Shown here piece after piece: positions 1 to 53,475 of a stretch of DNA of 64,000 nucleotides (position 1 is the stretch's first letter; each line of letters opens with the position of its first letter). The notes beneath the pieces were generated by a model. The model made no database searches. It saw only the letters and a list, made by a program, of their open reading frames with translations, and was not told the origin of the DNA. Source of the DNA: Octopus vulgaris (lineage: Eukaryota). The stretch is taken from NCBI GenBank assembly GCA_951406725.2, contig OX597814.1, forward strand, positions 106,454,001-106,518,000. The letters run 5' to 3'. The translations under genes were made by a program, and so were the position numbers.

Positions 1-209
1 AGACCAGTGGTCTAGCATATTAAAAAAGAATCCGAAGATTAAAATATTTATATATACCAATTAAGGACTGAACACGAAAAGTGGACAGTCAACATGCTAG
101 ATATAGACGTCAAATCGTCATTCTCCACAAAAGATTATGTTCTCAGATCAAACTCAACACAAAACCATAGCAATAAACAAGTGAAAAATATACGAAATAA
201 AATAATTAC

Positions 210-274
210 CCATGTACTAACTTAGTTTCAGCTGTTATTTTCCGCAAGGAAAACTGCAGCCATCATCAGCATGG
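210..274 (-). ncRNA. Type I hammerhead ribozyme (identical copies at 715-779, 1220-1284, 1725-1789)
   Basis: Minus strand reads CCATG-CTGATGA-T-GGCTG(CAGTTTTCC TTGC GGAAAATAA)CAGCT-GAAA-CTAAGTTAG-TA-CATGG: stems I, II and III pair, core intact, GUA cleavage triplet. Confidence 0.88.
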
Positions 275-1989
275 TCCGTTATAAATGTAATTTGCTGGAC
301 TAAATGCAAACACGATACCGAAATATCGCGTGCATGGAGTTCAACCTATTACATTTGAATATATCTTTCAAATGCCTTTACTTTGGCGCGTTGGAACCCG
401 AGAAAACTAGCCTGCAGCTAATAATTAGCAGCAGTTAATTTATCGGTTAGAGAACATTTATTTATATAAAATTAATTAAGGGTAGAAATTGATATTTATC
501 AATTAAGACCAGTGGTCTAGCATATTAAAAAAGAATCCGAAGATTAAAATATTTATATATACCAATTAAGGACTGAACACGAAAAGTGGACAGTCAACAT
601 GCTAGATATAGACGGCAAATCGTCATTCTCCACAAAAGATTATGTTCTCAGATCAAACTCAACACAAAACCATAGCAATAAACAAGTGAAAAATATACGA
701 AATAAAATAATTACCCATGTACTAACTTAGTTTCAGCTGTTATTTTCCGCAAGGAAAACTGCAGCCATCATCAGCATGGTCCGTTATAAATGTAATTTGC
801 TGGACTAAATGCAAACACGATACCGAAATATCGCGTGCATGGAGTTCAACCTATTACATTTGAATATATCTTTCAAATGCCTTTACTTTGGCGCGTTGGA
901 ACCCGAGAAAACTAGCCTGCAGCTAATAATTAGCAGCAGTTAATTTATCGGTTAGAGAACATTTATTTATATAAAATTAATTAAGGGTAGAAATTGATAT
1001 TTATCAATTAAGACCAGTGGTCTAGCATATTAAAAAAGAATCCGAAGATTAAAATATTTATATATACCAATTAAGGACTGAACACGAAAAGTGGACAGTC
1101 AACATGCTAGATATAGACGGCAAATCGTCATTCTCCACAAAAGATTATGTTCTCAGATCAAACTCAACACAAAACCATAGCAATAAACAAGTGAAAAATA
1201 TACGAAATAAAATAATTACCCATGTACTAACTTAGTTTCAGCTGTTATTTTCCGCAAGGAAAACTGCAGCCATCATCAGCATGGTCCGTTATAAATGTAA
1301 TTTGCTGGACTAAATGCAAACACGATACCGAAATATCGCGTGCATGGAGTTCAACCTATTACATTTGAATATATCTTTCAAATGCCTTTACTTTGGCGCG
1401 TTGGAACCCGAGAAAACTAGCCTGCAGCTAATAATTAGCAGCAGTTAATTTATCGGTTAGAGAACATTTATTTATATAAAATTAATTAAGGGTAGAAATT
1501 GATATTTATCAATTAAGACCAGTGGTCTAGCATATTAAAAAAGAATCCGAAGATTAAAATATTTATATATACCAATTAAGGACTGAACACGAAAAGTGGA
1601 CAGTCAACATGCTAGATATAGACGGCAAATCGTCATTCTCCACAAAAGATTATGTTCTCAGATCAAACTCAACACAAAACCATAGCAATAAACAAGTGAA
1701 AAATATACGAAATAAAATAATTACCCATGTACTAACTTAGTTTCAGCTGTTATTTTCCGCAAGGAAAACTGCAGCCATCATCAGCATGGTCCGTTATAAA
1801 TGTAATTTGCTGGACTAAATGCAAACACGATACCGAAATATCGCGTGCATGGAGTTCAACCTATTACATTTGAATATATCTTTGAAAGGCATTTGAAAGA
1901 TATATTCAAATGTAATAGGTTGAACTCCATGCACGCGATATTTCGGTATCGTGTTTGCATTTAGTCCAGCAAATTACATTTATAACGGA

Positions 1990-2054
1990 CCATGCTGATG
2001 ATGGCTGCAGTTTTCCTTGCGGAAAATAACAGCTGAAACTAAGTTAGTACATGG
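1990..2054 (+). ncRNA. Type I hammerhead ribozyme in the inverted arm
   Basis: CCATG 1990-1994, CTGATGA 1995-2001, GAAA 2035-2038, stem III CTAAGTTAG, TA 2048-2049, CATGG 2050-2054; predicted cleavage after 2049. Confidence 0.88.
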
Positions 2055-2205
2055 GTAATTATTTTATTTCGTATATTTTTCACTTGTTTATTGCTATGGT
2101 TTTGTGTTGAGTTTGATCTGAGAACATAATCTTTTGTGGAGAATGACGATTTGACGTCTATATCTAGCATGTTGACTGTCCACTTTTCGTGTTCAGTCCT
2201 TAATT

Positions 2206-2291
<86 letters not shown>

Positions 2292-3506: not shown

Positions 3507-3777
3507 GGCATCCCGTCGCTTGTAACGATCAATGGAGCAGTCTGCTCGTGAAATTAACGTGCAAGTGGTGGAGTGATTCCCTTATCGTAGTTCTCAGGGA
3601 AATTCAGCGTAACACAGAATGTGACAAGGCTGGTCCTTTGAAATTTCAGGTACAACTCATTTTTGCATTGGAGCAACGTGAAATAAAGTGCCTTGCTCAA
3701 GGACACAACGCACCGCTGGAGATTGAACCCAGAACCTTGTGATCGTGAACCAAACGCCCTAACCACTAAGCTACGCT
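3507..3777 (-). mobile_element. tRNA-derived SINE family B (related copies 16420-16752 and 47905-48278)
   Basis: Minus strand has a tRNA-like head (TAGTGGTTAGGGCG...GGTTCAATC) then GTGTCCTTGAGCAAGGCACTTT. The tail CTGCTCGTGAAATTAACGTGCAAG is shared with ~47965. Confidence 0.7.
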
Positions 3778-11669: not shown

Positions 11670-11960
11670 TTATACGAAAGTACATTTATATGCGTGTAGG
11701 CATTTCGAGAGTCTTTCAGAAAGTCTATTAATGATCTTCTCGTTAGTCCAGAGAATAGACAGGGCTTCCTCAGAGCAGAGACGGCATCTCCTTGAAATTA
11801 TATTGTATGGTTTCGTGTGCCTTACTATGGACCAAGTTATGTTGTATTTCATTTTATCCTCCTTTAGTCGCCATACAAAATCTATCAAAGGTGTTGTATG
11901 TCTCTTACTGATTGTCTTAAAATTGGCGATATGGTTACGATAACGATTCTTAAATAAATG
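11670..11960 (-). pseudogene. PLE GIY-YIG endonuclease C-terminal fragment (Naiad/Chlamys-like)
   Basis: FKNRYRNHIANF...LIDFVWRLK...ITWSIV...PY...CRLCSEE...INR..E..SKCLH resembles the C-terminus of Naiad-type PLE proteins. Confidence 0.7.
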
Positions 11961-13139
11961 AATCAGCCGTCTGTCCAATATAAACATACAGCCCTCCCCT
12001 TGTGTGCACGGTACATTTTTATACAATATTTGTACTCATACAGAGATTCATCAATAGACATTTTTATTTTTCTGTGCATGAGCATTTGTCGTATTTATTT
12101 GTATATATGACAGTCTCGACTCCATTTACCGACATTGTTACCGTGTCAACTGTATCATAAGTATTTCTACTATTACGATTTGGCCGTAATTGGTGTTTTT
12201 CATTGCAGCTTATATCTCCTTTGTTAGTATTTAGATGCGCATGTTCTCTAAATCCAGTAGGTGGGTTATTGAACCTGTGTCACATTTTGCTATTGTTTAT
12301 ACGATGCATAGGCTGGTCTAAATTAACGTAGGATACCTTCATGGAGGCTAATGAGAAGATCATGAATAGACTTTCCGAAAGACTCTCAAGATGCCTACAT
12401 ATAAAAATAAATATAAAAATGGAACAAAAACGCAATAGAGGGCTTTAAATATTCGGAAAAGACAGACGATGCAAAGGCGGACAAGAGAAACAATAATTAG
12501 AAGGACAGCCCAAAAAAGACGGGTCATTCGCGGCCTTCCTCCCTCAGTCAAGTCCCAGAAGTCACGACCATTTCGGGCAGTCACACTTGAGATATTACGA
12601 TCTGGCTGCCCCCCAAAATGTCTAAGCTAAGAGCATTAGACCCCTTTGAAAGAAAACAAGTGAGTGTATACGACAACAAAGACAAAAAGAAAACAAACAC
12701 ACAAAACGAAACGGAGAACATGATACATAATTACGAATACAAAAAACGGGAATGAATTTTGAATAACTGTTAACATAATTTACTTATGGATGACTTAAGT
12801 TTATTTTTAGCCTCTCCATTGTTACAAACACTAAGTAAATAGTTAAGTCGCTTTGTGATCATAAATGCACCAAACCCCACGTGTGCACATGCTTGTATGA
12901 GCGAGTGTACTCGCGCCATGTCGCTTGCCCGAGGGTGTTTATACATCCATATCTATTAACGGTTATTTTTAATACTATTCTCGCTGTATTGCGAGTTCAT
13001 TCCCTTTTTTTTTCGCATCTGTGATTTTATTTTTGATCTTCTATATAAATGAAGATATTTCCTCCGTCAGGCTGCTTTTCTCTCTACTAAACAGAAAGTT
13101 ATATTACAGAACAATCATTTTAATGAGTTGTATTTATTT

Positions 13140-14173: not shown

Positions 14174-14269
14174 GCGACGTTATGTTTATGTTGAATAGAG
14201 TTATCGTTATGTTTATGTTCAGGAGAGTTCTAAATAAGGGGAGGTAGTGAGTGATTTCTTCCGGTGTGA

Positions 14270-15010
14270 ATTTCTCTGTATCAGTATGTTCGGATGGTTG
14301 AGTCTGGGCTTGTACTTTTCAATGAAGAATGTTTCCTTGTTTAGTCTAATTTGTGTTGATGATCCGAAAGCACATTGGTAAAATGGAAAGATTAAAAATT
14401 GTGGTAGTAGTTGCTTTGCGCATTTCTCAATGTGCTCACTAAAAGGTATCATTCTATATTCTAGGAATGCAATCTGTTGTTGATGCAGTGTGCATCTACG
14501 TCTGAGTGATAGTCCCGTGGAACCCACGTAGTCTTGGTGGCAGCCCGAGCATTTTATGACATAAATTATGTTTTCAGAGGCACAAGTAAAGTTAGATTTG
14601 ATCTTGAATTTCTGTCCCTCTTTAAAGAGGAATTCTGATCCTTCTAGCAGTTTAGGACATGTTGCACAGTTCGATCTACCACATTATTTTACTTTTGCAT
14701 CCGTAATTTCAGAAGACAATTTTGCCTTTGTGAGAATCTTTTTAAGTGATTTAGGCTGTTTGTAGCTTTTAATGATTTGGTGTATGTTTAGAATTTCCTT
14801 TAATTTGGGGTCTTTATGAAGTATTGGTAAATTCTGGGTGATGATGGTGAAGGCTTCTTTGTTTCTGGGGTTGTATGTAGATATGTAAGGTAGTATTTTC
14901 GGGGAAGGTGTGTTGTTGTGTTGAACTTTTCTTAAAGTTTCTATGTTGATTTCTGTTGCACGTCTGATCCCATCCTCTATGAGTTGAGCTGGGTAATGTC
15001 TGTCAATTAG
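14270..15010 (-). pseudogene. PLE fragment: RT C-terminus/linker plus GIY-YIG endonuclease (Neptune-like), with an internal stop
   Basis: Hand translation: K*CGRSNCATCPKLLEGSEFLFKEGQKFKIKSNFTCASENIIYVIKCSGCHQDYVGSTGLSLRRRCTLH...RLNKETFFIEKYKPRLN. Truncated at (TA)n. Confidence 0.85.
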
Positions 15011-15032
15011 GGTGTTTTATATATATATATAC

Positions 15033-15428: not shown

Positions 15429-16077
15429 AAATGTGAGGATAAAATTCTTTCGAAAAAAAAAAGTTTTCTCGAAAAAAATTTTATCAGCATATTAAAAAAT
15501 ACCTTTAACGGTTAAATTTATAAACAATTCATAAATGAGGGCAAAGGAAAAAAATTCTAATGCCAAATATGCCGAAAAATTGGACATATTGTCCATTAAC
15601 CATATAATTTTTTCACAATACGTACGCTACTCGAAAAAAGGTCGACAGAAATTTCTAAAAAAATCCATTATTACCATATCGGACCGATTTCAGAGTTAGC
15701 TACTAAGAGCCCTCTCTTCGTCAGTGATACATGTGGCCAAAGAAATAAATGAGATACTTACTCATACCCATGGAAAAAGCAAATACTAAGTCACGGGCAC
15801 AACTAAGTACCCCAAATACATCCAAAATAGAAATACTCCAGCCCATTCGAGGCACGAGCGATTTGAAAAAATCGTATTGTGAAAAAATTATATGGTTAAT
15901 GGACAATATGTCCAATTTTTCGGCATATTTGGCATTAGAATTTTTTTCCTTTGCCCTCATTTATGAATTGTTTATAAATTTAACAGTTTTGGGGATTTTT
16001 TAATATGCTGGCCATTGATAAAATTTTTTTCGAGAAAATTTTTTTTTTTTTTCGAAAAGCATTTTATCCTCACATTT
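15428..16077 (-). mobile_element. Fold-back HHR element (arms 15428-15622 and 15873-16077), related to the 505-bp unit
   Basis: ~200-bp inverted arms beside (TA)n, a hammerhead between them, and the shared motif CAGCATATTAAAAAA..CC. Confidence 0.8.
15672..15729 (-). ncRNA. Type I hammerhead ribozyme
   Basis: TATCA-CTGACGA-AGAG(AGGGCTCTTAGTAGCTAA)CTCT-GAAA-TCGGTCCGA-TA-TGGTA; canonical core. Confidence 0.82.
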
Positions 16078-17490: not shown

Positions 17491-19140
17491 TTAGTATGGC
17501 ACATCATATATGATGTGATGTGTAAAGTCGTGTGGTGTAGTGAGGAGAAGATGGGGAGGGGGAGAAGAGGGGGGAGAGAGAGGAGGGGGAGAAGGAAGGG
17601 GAGGAGGGGGAGGAAGGAGGAAAGAGGGAGAGGGGAGAGGGGAGAGAGGGGAGAGAGGGGGAGGGGAGAGAGGGAGAGGGGGAGAGAGAAGGGGAGTGAG
17701 GGAGCAGAGGGAAGGGGAAGAGGGAAGGAGGGAGGGAGAAAGAGGGAAGAAGGGGAGTAGGGGTGAAAGGATGAAGGACTGAAGAAGTAGGGGTCGGGGG
17801 GAAAGGATAGGTGAGGGGGAGAGGGGGGTTAGATGAGGAGGGGGGGGAGAGTTGAGACCAAATGGCGTATAAGAGCGAAGAGAGAAGATTAATTCCTGTT
17901 CATGGCGCAAACGGGAATCCGGATGGCCTCTGTGTAAGGACAAACCATACACAGATAGGTGTTGCAAGGAGTGACCGGTGGAGCGGAAATGGCGTGAGAC
18001 CGGTGTGTCGTTCGCAAGGTGGATGTCACGAAGGTGTTCCGCGAACCGGTCAGCCAAGCGGCGTCCCGTTTGTCCGATGTACAAGGAATTGCAGAGAGAG
18101 CAAGAGATGCAATAGATAATATTGCTGGAGGTGCAGGTGAAGGAGTGGATGATGGGATAGGGTCGATGGTGGGTGCTAGTGAGGCGGGTGGTGTTGGAGA
18201 GGTAAGGGCAAGTGCGGCAACGTGGGCGGGAGCAGGGGAACGAGCCGGGTTGGGAGGTAGGGTCAGGGAAGGAGCTATGGACCAAAAGGTCTCGAAGGTT
18301 GTGGGCTCGTTTGAAAGAGGGGAGGGGTCGGTGAGGGAAGAGGTGTGAAGTGGACGGGTCGGACTGGAGATGACGGAAAGCTCGAAGAATGGTGCGTTGG
18401 AGACGTAGGGTCGTGGGGTGGTAAGTGAGGGGAAAAGGGAGGCGGGAGGCTACAGGGCGGGTTCGGGGAGAGAGAGCAGATACACGGTCCACGGACCGTG
18501 CTCTGGCAAGGGCGGTGTGGATAGTGGTGAGGGGGTATCCACGTAGGGTGAAATGGTGAGCCATACGTTGAGACTGAGTCTCAAAGTCATGGTCGTCACT
18601 ACAGAGCCTACGTAGACGTAGGAATTGGGAATAGGGGATGGAAAGCTTGGTGTGTTCTGGGTGGGAGGAAGAGAAGTTGAGGTATGAGTGTGAGTCTGTG
18701 TGTTTGTAGTGAATGGAGGTGGTAAAAGTGGAGTGAAGAATGCTAACCGAAATGTCGAGGAAGGAGACAGAGGTGTTGGAGATAGTGGAAGTAAAGTGGA
18801 GGGCTGGATGGAAAGATTGGACGAAAGAGAGGAAGGAATGTAGATGTTCGCGGGAGAGTGAGGTGGCACCGATAATGTCGTCGATGTAACGACCATATAG
18901 TTCAAGAGTGGGACCAGTGAAATTAGAGAATATTTGGGCCTCAACATAGCCAACGAACAGGTTCGCATAGTTGGGGCCCATTCGCGTTCCCATGGCCACT
19001 CCCGAGACCTGATGGTAGAACTCGCCCGCGAACGAGAAGCAGTTCAGAGTAAGGACAAGTTCGGCCAGACGAATGAGTGTGGAGGTGTCAGGTACAGGGT
19101 TAGAGCGGAGGTCAAGAAAGTGTCGAAGGGCCTGCAGTCC
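17491..19140 (-). CDS. PLE reverse transcriptase (partial) + GIY-YIG endonuclease; frame open from the truncation at ~19140
   Basis: LAELVLTLNCFSFAGEFYHQVSGVAMGTRMGPNYANLF, RYIDDI, SFLD, YLNFSSSHP, IPYSQFLRLRRLCS, CSRPRCRTC linker, IIYCISC..C..LYIGQTGRRLADRFAEH, PFGLN. No stops. The Pro-rich tail after ~17830 is probably read-through. Confidence 0.93.
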   Translation of the reverse strand, partial: GLQALRHFLDLRSNPVPDTSTLIRLAELVLTLNCFSFAGEFYHQVSGVAMGTRMGPNYANLFVGYVEAQIFSNFTGPTLELYGRYIDDIIGATSLSREHLHSFLSFVQSFHPALHFTSTISNTSVSFLDISVSILHSTFTTSIHYKHTDSHSYLNFSSSHPEHTKLSIPYSQFLRLRRLCSDDHDFETQSQRMAHHFTLRGYPLTTIHTALARARSVDRVSALSPRTRPVASRLPFPLTYHPTTLRLQRTILRAFRHLQSDPSTSHLFPHRPLPSFKRAHNLRDLLVHSSFPDPTSQPGSFPCSRPRCRTCPYLSNTTRLTSTHHRPYPIIHSFTCTSSNIIYCISCSLCNSLYIGQTGRRLADRFAEHLRDIHLANDTPVSRHFRSTGHSLQHLSVYGLSLHRGHPDSRLRHEQELIFSLRSYTPFGLNSPPPPHLTPLSPSPILSPRPLLLQSFILSPLLPFFPLSPSLLPSSPSLCSLTPLLSPPLPLSPPPLSPLSPLPSPSFLLPPPPPLPSPPPLSPPSSPPPHLLLTTPHDFTHHIIYDVPY

Positions 19141-19144
19141 TTTT

Positions 19145-38561: not shown

Positions 38562-38725
38562 CGATGGGCTTCTTTCAGTTTCCATCTACCAAATTCACTC
38601 ACAAGGCTTTGGTCAGCCCGAGACTATAGTAGTAGACACTTGCCCAAGATGCCACGCAGTGGGACTGAACCCGGAACCATGTGGTTGGTAAGCAAGCTAC
38701 TTACCACACAGCCACTCCTGCGCCT
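38333..38725 (-). mobile_element. SINE family A, full length
   Basis: Head ...CCACTCCTGCGCCT ends at 38725; tail TACTCTTTTACTCTTTTAC. Confidence 0.88.
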
Positions 38726-38838
38726 ATATATATATATATATATATACGCATAAATATATACACACATATATATATACATATATGCATATATTCACATACA
38801 TATATATATATACATGTATATATATACACACATATATA

Positions 38839-38896
<58 letters not shown>

Positions 38897-38907
38897 CATA
38901 CATACAC

Positions 38908-38953
<46 letters not shown>

Positions 38954-39182
38954 TTATTAATCAATATAGGGTGGCAAAAAAAAATTTTGTAGAATTCTTT
39001 TGCCACCAGCGGCCTAGTGGGAAAAAATTAAATAGTCATAAACCATTTTTAAGTTCAACATCACAATCAAGGAACGGCCATAATAGGCCATTCACCCACT
39101 AGAAATAACAGCCAAAAGCTTTAACCGCAAAATAACGTCAATTCCGTAAACCAGGAGAAAATTGAAAAACATTTACCCTGTA

Positions 39183-39289
39183 ATTTCTTAGACGATGCAC
39201 CGTTTCATCTTCTGTTTAATGGAAAACTAACCTGATTAAATTAAATCAAGCCAATCTACCATAGGCCCTTAGATTCATCAGTAAGAAAT
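39183..39289 (-). ncRNA. Type I hammerhead with extended stem II (second copy 39675-39781)
   Basis: Reverse complement of 40419-40525. Confidence 0.8.
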
Positions 39290-40418
39290 AGCCAAGCCGG
39301 AACAGATATTTTTCACGAGGCATTCTCGTTGCTACCTCGTCAATATCTGACCTAAAATTTTCAAATCGTCGCACTCGCGCCAAATTTATCGGCAGCAAAT
39401 AAATATAAGCCGCCGATTCCATTACGGAATTAACCAGAAAATTCATAATTAATCAATATAGGGTGGCAAAAAAAAATTTTGTAGAATTCTTTTGCCACCA
39501 GCGGCCTAGTGGGAAAAAATTAAATAGTCATAAACCATTTTTAAGTTCAACATCACAATCAAGGAACGGCCATAATAGGCCATTCACCCACTAGAAATAA
39601 CAGCCAAAAGCTTTAACCGCAAAATAACGTCAATTCCGTAAACCAGGAGAAAATTGAAAAACATTTACCCTGTAATTTCTTAGACGATGCACCGTTTCAT
39701 CTTCTGTTTAATGGAAAACTAACCTGATTAAATTAAATCAAGCCAATCTACCATAGGCCCTTAGATTCATCAGTAAGAAATAGCCAAGCCGGAACAGATA
39801 TTTTTCACGAGGCATTCTCGTTGCTACCTCGTCAATATCTGACCTAAAATTTTCAAATCGTCGCACTCGCGCCAAATTTATCGGCAGCAAATAAATATAA
39901 GCCGCCGATTCCATTACGGAATTAACCAGAAAATTCATAATTAATCAATATAGGGTGGCAAAAAAAATTTGATTTAATTTAATCAGGTTAGTTTTCCATT
40001 AAACAGAAGATGAAACGGTGCATCATCTAAGAAATTACAGGGTAAATGTTTTTCAATTTTCTCCTGGTTTACGGAATTGACGTTATTTTGCGGTTAAAGC
40101 TTTTGGCTGTTATTTCTAGTGGGTGAATGGCCTATTATGGCCGTTCCTTGATTGTGATGTTGAACTTAAAAATGGTTTATGACTATTTAATTTTTTCCCA
40201 CTAGGCCGCTGGTGGCAAAAGAATTCTACAAAATTTTTTTGCCACCCTATATTGATTAATTATGAATTTTCTGGTTAATTCCGTAATGGAATCGGCGGCT
40301 TATATTTATTTGCTGCCGATAAATTTGGCGCGAGTGCGACGATTTGAAAATTTTAGGTCAGATATTGACGAGGTAGCAACGAGAATGCCTCGTGAAAAAT
40401 ATCTGTTCCGGCTTGGCT

Positions 40419-40525
40419 ATTTCTTACTGATGAATCTAAGGGCCTATGGTAGATTGGCTTGATTTAATTTAATCAGGTTAGTTTTCCATTAAACAGAAGA
40501 TGAAACGGTGCATCGTCTAAGAAAT
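40419..40525 (+). ncRNA. Type I hammerhead with extended stem II
   Basis: ATTTCTTA-CTGATGA-ATCT(~60 nt with a G-U-rich hairpin ATGG..AGATTGGCTTGATT/AATCAGGTTAGTTT..CCAT)AGAT-GAAA-CGGTGCATCG-TC-TAAGAAAT: 8-bp stem I, GUC site at 40515-40517. Confidence 0.82.
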
Positions 40526-40643
40526 TACAGGGTAAATGTTTTTCAATTTTCTCCTGGTTTACGGAATTGACGTTATTTTGCGGTTAAAGCTTTTGGCTGT
40601 TATTTCTAGTGGGTGAATGGCCTATTATGGCCGTTCCTTGATT

Positions 40644-40692
<49 letters not shown>

Positions 40693-53403: not shown

Positions 53404-53475
53404 TCTAGGACCCGAGTTTCGGACTACCCGAAATACGGTTGTTAGCGTAAATTTAATTAGTCCTCTTCAGCTAGA
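53404..53475 (-). ncRNA. Canonical type I hammerhead within a longer hairpin (53346-53537)
   Basis: TCTAG-CTGAAGA-GGACTA(...)TAGTCC-GAAA-CTCGGG-TC-CTAGA. Flanks 53360-53393 and 53479-53513 are complementary. Confidence 0.88.

Follow-up and report, generated by a model that had tools for sequence, protein, structure and literature searches.

An insertion without an open reading frame (ORF; the longest stop-free frame in the concatemer of its 492-nt unit is 68 aa) lies between two microsatellite tracts in the window, by which we mean the whole 64,000-nt stretch of Octopus vulgaris DNA that was analysed. The host assembly (2.8 Gb, 227 contigs) is microsatellite-rich. The insertion is bounded on the left by a (TA)n-rich target tract (38725..38957; period 2 in Tandem Repeats Finder, TRF) and on the right by a (TA)22 target tract (40647..40690; TRF). 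The left arm (38956..39970, minus strand; TRF, self-BLAST, and arm mapping) is 1015 nt long and amounts to 2.06 units of 492 bp; for 38956-39967, TRF reported period 492, 2.1 copies, and 100% matches. Its 3' end is the long site (L, unit position 235; L motif at 38956-38965), and it is 5'-truncated at unit position 205. Core search located in it two type I hammerhead cores whose stem II is extended by 60 nt (39191..39281 and 39683..39773, both on the minus strand). The right, inverted arm (39969..40648, plus strand; self-BLAST and arm mapping) measures 680 nt, and its 3' end is the short site (S, unit position 131). This arm contains a truncated half hammerhead recognized in the sequence (39969..40027, plus strand), a complete hammerhead (40419..40525, plus strand; core search, folding, and pairing alignment), and an S initiation site, whose CC-TTGATT motif serves as the right end (40636..40648, plus strand; by motif). 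In the left arm, the S motif is internal (39060-39072), and the ~104–107-nt segment between the S and L sites (38956..39059, minus strand; from S/L motif positions) forms a tail found at the left end only. The sole substitution among the units of the insertion is G490A, a G to A at 40025 that changes GUC to AUC in the half hammerhead.

The 5'-truncated ends of the two arms (unit positions 205 and 434) meet head to head at 39969..39970 with a 2-nt overlap (arm mapping). An earlier note on this DNA had proposed the order (TA)n, two 492-bp units, inversion, and (TA)n, with an inverted arm of about 1.4 units; TRF, self-BLAST, and arm mapping bore out this plan, and the inverted arm measured 1.38 units. 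The note had also described both ends as visible. They were mapped as such, with one refinement: on each arm the ribozyme strand faces outward, so the RNA 3' ends lie at the two outer edges and the 5'-truncated ends face each other at the centre.

The complete hammerhead consists of stem I (40419-40426 with 40518-40525), CUGAUGA (40427-40433), a 68-nt stem II domain (40434-40501), GAAA (40502-40505), and GUC (40515-40517), with the predicted cut after 40517. Its core (40427-40517, plus strand) is of type I, with an 8-bp stem I, a 4-bp basal stem II carrying a 60-nt insert, and a short, self-complementary stem III. The insert is predicted to fold into an 18-19-bp G-U-rich helix. The suspicion that a length-limited motif search could miss such a hammerhead was justified, as Rfam at gathering thresholds called zero hammerheads in the window. 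The exact hammerhead pattern had 613 genomic matches versus 0 for the reversed control, and the 492-nt unit RNA is highly self-paired (z = −6.67 as a linear molecule and, with 25 shuffles, −7.79 as a circular one). The match counts and the linear folding score argue that the hammerhead is not a chance occurrence. Further type I hammerhead motifs are present in the window at 53409-53470 (minus strand; 43-nt stem II domain) and 15677-15724 (minus strand).

Pairing was assessed in an alignment of 17 variants, picked from 44 distinct sequences plus one further copy, with singletons near the main types omitted. In this alignment, 96.8% of cells were paired, versus 19–46% in slid controls, so that the stem pairing is conserved among genomic copies as the earlier note had anticipated. 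Changes on both sides were found in 6 of 28 pairs, and these represent few independent events because most of them separate just two subfamilies. As MAFFT puts a gap in the wrong place at the fourth stem II pair, this count covered only three of the basal pairs, and the anchored pairs were listed separately. In the anchored count, stem II pairs 2–4 and the extension helix were kept throughout, and stem III was self-complementary in all variants, surviving a two-base change. The first stem II pair was unpaired in nine of the 17. Compensatory changes support the predicted 60-nt stem II extension, which had been noted before as ~60 extra nucleotides in a G-U-rich helix. On this comparative evidence, the CUGANGA, GAAA, and NUH core and three stems kept by compensatory change identify the motif as a type I hammerhead. 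The lowest-energy fold of the monomer buries the core (−27.6 versus −24.4 kcal/mol for the active fold), so the monomer is predicted to be inactive; a stem III self-dimer with a second copy is predicted at −17.5 kcal/mol. Such a predicted inactive monomer and dimer pairing fit the dimer-dependent hammerheads described for Penelope-like elements (PLEs; PMC4209133). Eight of nine frog retrozymes tested did not cleave (10.64898/2026.07.22.740005).

Searching the genome with the unit gave 981 candidates, and the best 40 scored gave 238 unit matches, with 95–100% identity among the matches listed. The 40 loci analysed are the window locus and 39 others; they scored best of the 981 candidates and over-represent long arms. 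The insert is one young member of a dispersed, non-coding, hammerhead-bearing 492-nt repeat family with hundreds of copies. With its tandem hammerhead units, lack of coding capacity, lack of LTRs, and multiple copies, the family is a non-LTR retrozyme of the PLE system. An ORF for reverse transcriptase (RT) plus GIY-YIG nuclease, which defines an autonomous PLE, was absent from the element. PLE coding sequence was joined to the unit in none of the 40 loci, and the few PLE matches in the flanks lay beyond the TA tracts or at a distance. The statement that the insertion is non-autonomous thus holds at the family level. It is highly improbable that, instead of representing a separate non-autonomous family, the insert is what is left of a truncated autonomous PLE, namely its 3' terminal repeat region: its layout is the standard tandem-plus-inverted form of PLEs (PMC8557442), but arrays reach up to 11 consecutive units without coding DNA, and no ORF adjoins the unit in any of the 40 loci.

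Related designs recur in this genome. Family 7 is a sister subfamily of 473 nt and 72% identity (152 pattern matches versus 0 for the control) and shares the whole-unit fold: both sides change in 8 of the 136 consensus pairs and one side in 29, and 16 pairs break. Family 1, found at window positions 1-2220 and also at L070, has a 505-nt unit of unrelated sequence with a 33-nt stem II domain; its copy in the window begins 49 nt before the window and has a fold-back junction and a ~93-nt tail. At 3714-3775 (minus strand) of the window is a weak tRNA match, probably the head of a SINE. At least four further non-coding hammerhead tandem families (3, 4, 5, and 7; loci L214, L215, L231-L260, L217, L219, L261-L290) have units of 473–584 nt and the same end motif or plan. 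Among them, family 5 (584 nt) was considered as the 3' end of an autonomous element and rejected, being another non-coding tandem family. The CC-TTRATT motif just before the S end is common to families 1, 2, and 3 and varied in family 7. The end motif followed by (TA)n had 1025 genomic matches versus 25 when reversed, and this search yielded further families of the same plan.

The ends of the arms follow a strict rule. Counting from the predicted cut, the arm ends fall at ~131 (site S) or ~238 (site L). Among the 40 loci, 33 were S+L, none was S+S or L+L, four had one atypical end, and three were single-armed; the chance of such pairing under independent, even-odds choice is ~1e-10. A partial tandem with an inverted, 5'-truncated arm was present at 37 of the 40 loci. 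All 33 typical loci had a tail of ~107 nt, bounded by S and L, at one end only, and 76 of 77 outer ends met (TA)n. Family 1 obeyed the rule in all 15 two-armed loci (among 21 loci). For family 5, 30 loci were chosen by their S end; of the 16 that were two-armed, 14 were S+L, one was atypical, and one was dropped as cut by the locus edge. A chimeric assembly is unlikely because 37 of the 40 loci are inverted with differing junctions and the end rule is strict. The inversion junction of the present insertion was unbridged in four coded sequencing runs, which proves nothing. Loose contig ends in two of these runs had the L site joined to (TA)n. Contigs of the four runs cover the 492-nt unit and its tandem joint, and a circle junction would equal the tandem junction in DNA. 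Two irregular structures were also seen: a mixed insertion at L066 (5530-5600), where a family 2 arm has a family-3-like piece next to it, and, at L050 (6944-6985), a foreign piece of 40 nt that replaces the second arm.

For one PLE protein, cleavage and extension of both strands have been described, as have starts at two internal RNA sites, which bound the tail; the protein is predicted to form a dimer (PMC11167929). We consider it likely, with fair confidence, that the retrozyme is mobilised by the reverse transcriptase-endonuclease of a PLE, probably of the Hydra clade, that primes both DNA ends on one RNA at two fixed sites. The helper would cut both strands of (TA)n. Priming would then take place at S (131 nt past the ribozyme cut) from one DNA end and at L (238 nt past it) from the other, and each cDNA would run on round a covalently continuous template. 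The template would most likely be a circle produced by dimer-dependent hammerhead cleavage and ligation, and sometimes a multimer. The two cDNAs would end at differing points and be joined via short microhomology. With its ribozyme, S, tail, and L, the unit resembles a PLE monomer that has lost its ORF. It counts against this mechanism that, in vitro, no difference in start site was seen between the strands and hammerhead cleavage was unneeded (Frangieh et al., PMC11167929).

The arms themselves bear on how many priming events took place. The S arm was the longer one in 13 of the 33 S+L loci, and arm lengths were uncorrelated (rho −0.25, p 0.17), which indicates that neither arm copies the other. 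Since either arm may be longer, both were likely made independently on a template that was continuous across the ribozyme site. A single priming event, after which the cDNA folds back, the inverted arm is copied, and the endonuclease resolves the product at a fixed site to leave the tail on one side, is very unlikely. It would suit the four fold-back junctions among the 37 two-armed loci, in which the inner ends fall at the same unit position, two of them at a strong hairpin, and Craig et al. (PMC8557442) ascribed the tail to endonuclease resolution. Against it, inner ends differ in the other 33 loci, and either arm can be longer by kilobases (4143 versus 1516 nt; 41 versus 5544 nt). Junctions of the arms overlapped by at least 1 nt in 26 of the 37 two-armed loci.

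The nature of the template can be judged from the cleavage site and from variants. The cleavage site was crossed once by 71 of the 77 arms, partly through selection, and at least twice by 47. Inner ends were not piled at this site (6 within 15 nt, versus 4.7 expected), and they were non-uniform along the unit (KS p = 0.009). This repeated crossing and the lack of enrichment rule out a cut linear monomer as template and uphold the circular or concatemeric template suggested earlier from the long inverted arm. In comparisons of 124 full units, two units differed by 2.27 substitutions when they came from one locus, by 2.41 when they lay on opposite arms, and by 4.47 when they came from different loci. 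At L061, L062, and L069, private variants are shared by all units on both arms, consistent with repeated reading of a single circle. On the other hand, L031 and L034 are haplotype mosaics, and the eleven-unit array of L051 has a four-unit higher-order variant pattern; a single monomer circle explains neither, so that multimeric templates or later recombination must also occur.

These observations have to be weighed between a circle and an uncut linear multimer transcribed from a tandem array, on which the same two-site PLE priming would operate, with the hammerhead as a passenger or acting elsewhere in the cycle. The mosaic and periodic arrays of L031, L034, and L051 would suit the multimer, as would the predicted inactive fold of the monomer ribozyme, and unprocessed RNA was the main in vitro substrate of the anole PLE (PMC11167929). 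The fixation of new variants across all units of both arms at L061, L062, and L069 points instead to a bottleneck of one unit, subfamilies of 72% identity have kept the ribozyme pairing, and related metazoan retrozymes accumulate as circles (PMC7229834). We regard the uncut multimer as a minority possibility, and the circle is moderately favoured over it as the template. A more specific version of the two-site mechanism is put forward tentatively, at somewhat less than even chances: a dimeric Hydra RT would engage one circular RNA at two sites ~100 nt apart, each (TA)n end would be primed separately, and both would roll simultaneously, the long-stem-II hammerheads marking an overlooked class of circle and helper.

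Starting from a Hydra-type fragment, the search for a helper reached several families of intact Hydra-type PLEs with 842–1091-aa frames, long 3' regions, and long-stem-II hammerheads (L371-L387). All four intact Hydra-type families examined (frames of 1091, 981, 842, and 960 aa) carry type I hammerheads, with stem II domains of 57, 60, 51, and 85 nt, respectively, and self-complementary stem III. By motif scan, the four proteins have RW and DKT motifs, a CxCx5C linker, and CxxC and CxH in a C-terminal nuclease. They are assigned to the Hydra clade by comparing this motif scan with the published description (PMC8557442). Pfam matched no family in the three of three Hydra-type proteins scanned, and the RT core aligned weakly with a Neptune RT (E = 0.001). 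In the 981-aa family, a two-armed locus has its ends 37 and 155 nt past the cut, and in an intact copy the start codon is 209 nt past it; the ends of a two-armed locus of the 960-aa family are at 205 and 432. In the 842-aa family, one copy (L375/L381) passes from its own 3' region into a 234-nt segment that is 84% identical to retrozyme family 3 and ends in (TA)n. This chimera, a single locus, suggests a template switch within one reaction. A separate hammerhead family with a 54-nt stem II domain, at L108 (45-117, plus strand) and L217 (8285-8357, minus strand), has the same stem III palindrome as the 842-aa Hydra family.

The 492-nt unit had no significant nucleotide match to any autonomous element fetched, including the four intact Hydra families, and the exact CC-TTRATT motif was absent from the Hydra ends seen; the helper is thus only inferred. 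The long-stem hammerheads in four intact families and the fusion to a sister retrozyme nevertheless make a Hydra-clade PLE the likely helper. Six stretches upstream of further Hydra families had no terminal repeat in the sense direction.

Several other candidates were examined and gave no sequence match to the unit. A GIY-YIG family search returned 148 matches, mostly Neptune-type (30 loci and 20 longer stretches viewed). The outcome was the same for 30 of the 150 loci of an old Hydra-type family represented in the window, for 30 of the 992 pattern matches of a second Neptune family, for Nematis-like and other relics with C-terminal nucleases, and for a degenerate Naiad group, of which 20 of 38 places were extended. 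At L360, the family-1-like piece next to a Naiad turned out to be a small insert of its own, with TA tracts on both sides. The window also holds PLE relics at 17491-19143, 14219-15016, and 11670-12035 (all minus strand), which we take, partly by their motifs, to be Poseidon-, Neptune-, and Hydra-like, respectively.

A Neptune or Naiad PLE acting as helper in place of a Hydra element is unlikely. Neptune-type families are very active in this genome, are flanked by (TA)n, which they target, and had one-of-each ends in both two-armed loci seen (L166, L179). However, their tails are ~40 nt, their ribozymes short or degenerate, and their end motifs different. Some Naiads have widely spaced hammerhead half cores, but in the one group found none of the 38 matches lay in a frame above 218 aa, and its ends are unrelated; the search may have overlooked further Naiad lineages. 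An extra upstream ORF of ~480 aa in another frame is a feature of two very active Neptune-type families, whose ribozyme core was degenerate or not found (L161-L167, L179, L295-L320). In the old Naiad group, GAAA and CTGATGA stand in reversed order around a hairpin, resembling the published 'half core' (3' regions of L352, L355, L358, and L363). A mixed insertion at L178 (3426-3908) has a Hydra fragment between two Neptune arms.

How PLEs make tandem, inverted, and tailed insertions, and whether PLE proteins carry retrozyme circles, are stated as open questions in the literature (PMC8557442; 10.64898/2026.07.22.740005). The present family offers a minimal test system: its 492-nt non-coding RNA has two start sites that have been mapped and has left hundreds of young insertions, and the same genome contains intact candidates for the helper. 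A strict one-of-each rule leads to the prediction that both DNA ends are primed in a coordinated way on a single RNA, a step beyond the reach of bulk in vitro data. So long a stem II also implies that Rfam-type and short-descriptor surveys undercount animal hammerheads. The value of the insertion is that it exposes the mechanism and makes it testable.

In LINE-1 twin priming, both target ends prime on one RNA, giving a 5' inversion joined by microhomology. There, the second site is variable, whereas it is fixed here; the octopus insertions moreover have no poly(A) tail and a repeated template. Non-LTR retrozymes and their circles were described by Cervera and de la Pena (2020; PMC7229834) and were tied to PLE terminal repeats by Li et al. 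(2026; 10.64898/2026.07.22.740005). The present family shares with those of metazoans the non-coding tandem units of a few hundred bases with one type I hammerhead each, low GC content, high self-pairing, and a proposed PLE origin. Its unit of 492 nt compares with 170–400 nt typically (PMC7229834) and 51–972 (10.64898/2026.07.22.740005). The 68-nt stem II domain, the head-to-head arms, and the fixed ends in (TA)n set it apart from metazoan non-LTR retrozymes. The word 'inverted' is absent from the 2020 paper, and head-to-head fixed ends do not appear in the portions of the 2026 preprint covered here. In the openly licensed literature searched, we found no description of the strict S/L pairing, the ~100-nt tail, or stem II domains of 50–85 nt.

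Tails, inversions, and two-site initiation are already known traits of PLEs. Tails at one end, inverted arms, and a (TA)n bias were described by Craig et al. (2021; PMC8557442). With endonuclease-positive PLEs, the retrozyme shares partial tandems, an inverted 5'-truncated arm, a one-end tail, two internal RT start sites, AT-rich or (TA)n targets, and a hammerhead in the terminal repeat (PMC8557442; PMC11167929). It differs from them in having no ORF, a tail of ~107 nt versus 30–40, and often multi-unit structure in both arms. One-of-each site use is strict here, in contrast to the strand-indifferent starts of the PLE in vitro (PMC11167929). The Hydra clade comes closest in that it inserts into (TA)n (PMC8557442) and, in this genome, has long-stem-II hammerheads and a tail of >100 nt upstream of the ORF. 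Published Hydra elements are <3 kb with canonical hammerheads (PMC8557442), whereas those found here have 842–1091-aa frames, long 3' regions, and 51–85-nt stem II domains. Ribozyme architecture, tail length, and the (TA)n target are common to the retrozyme and the Hydra-clade PLEs of this genome.
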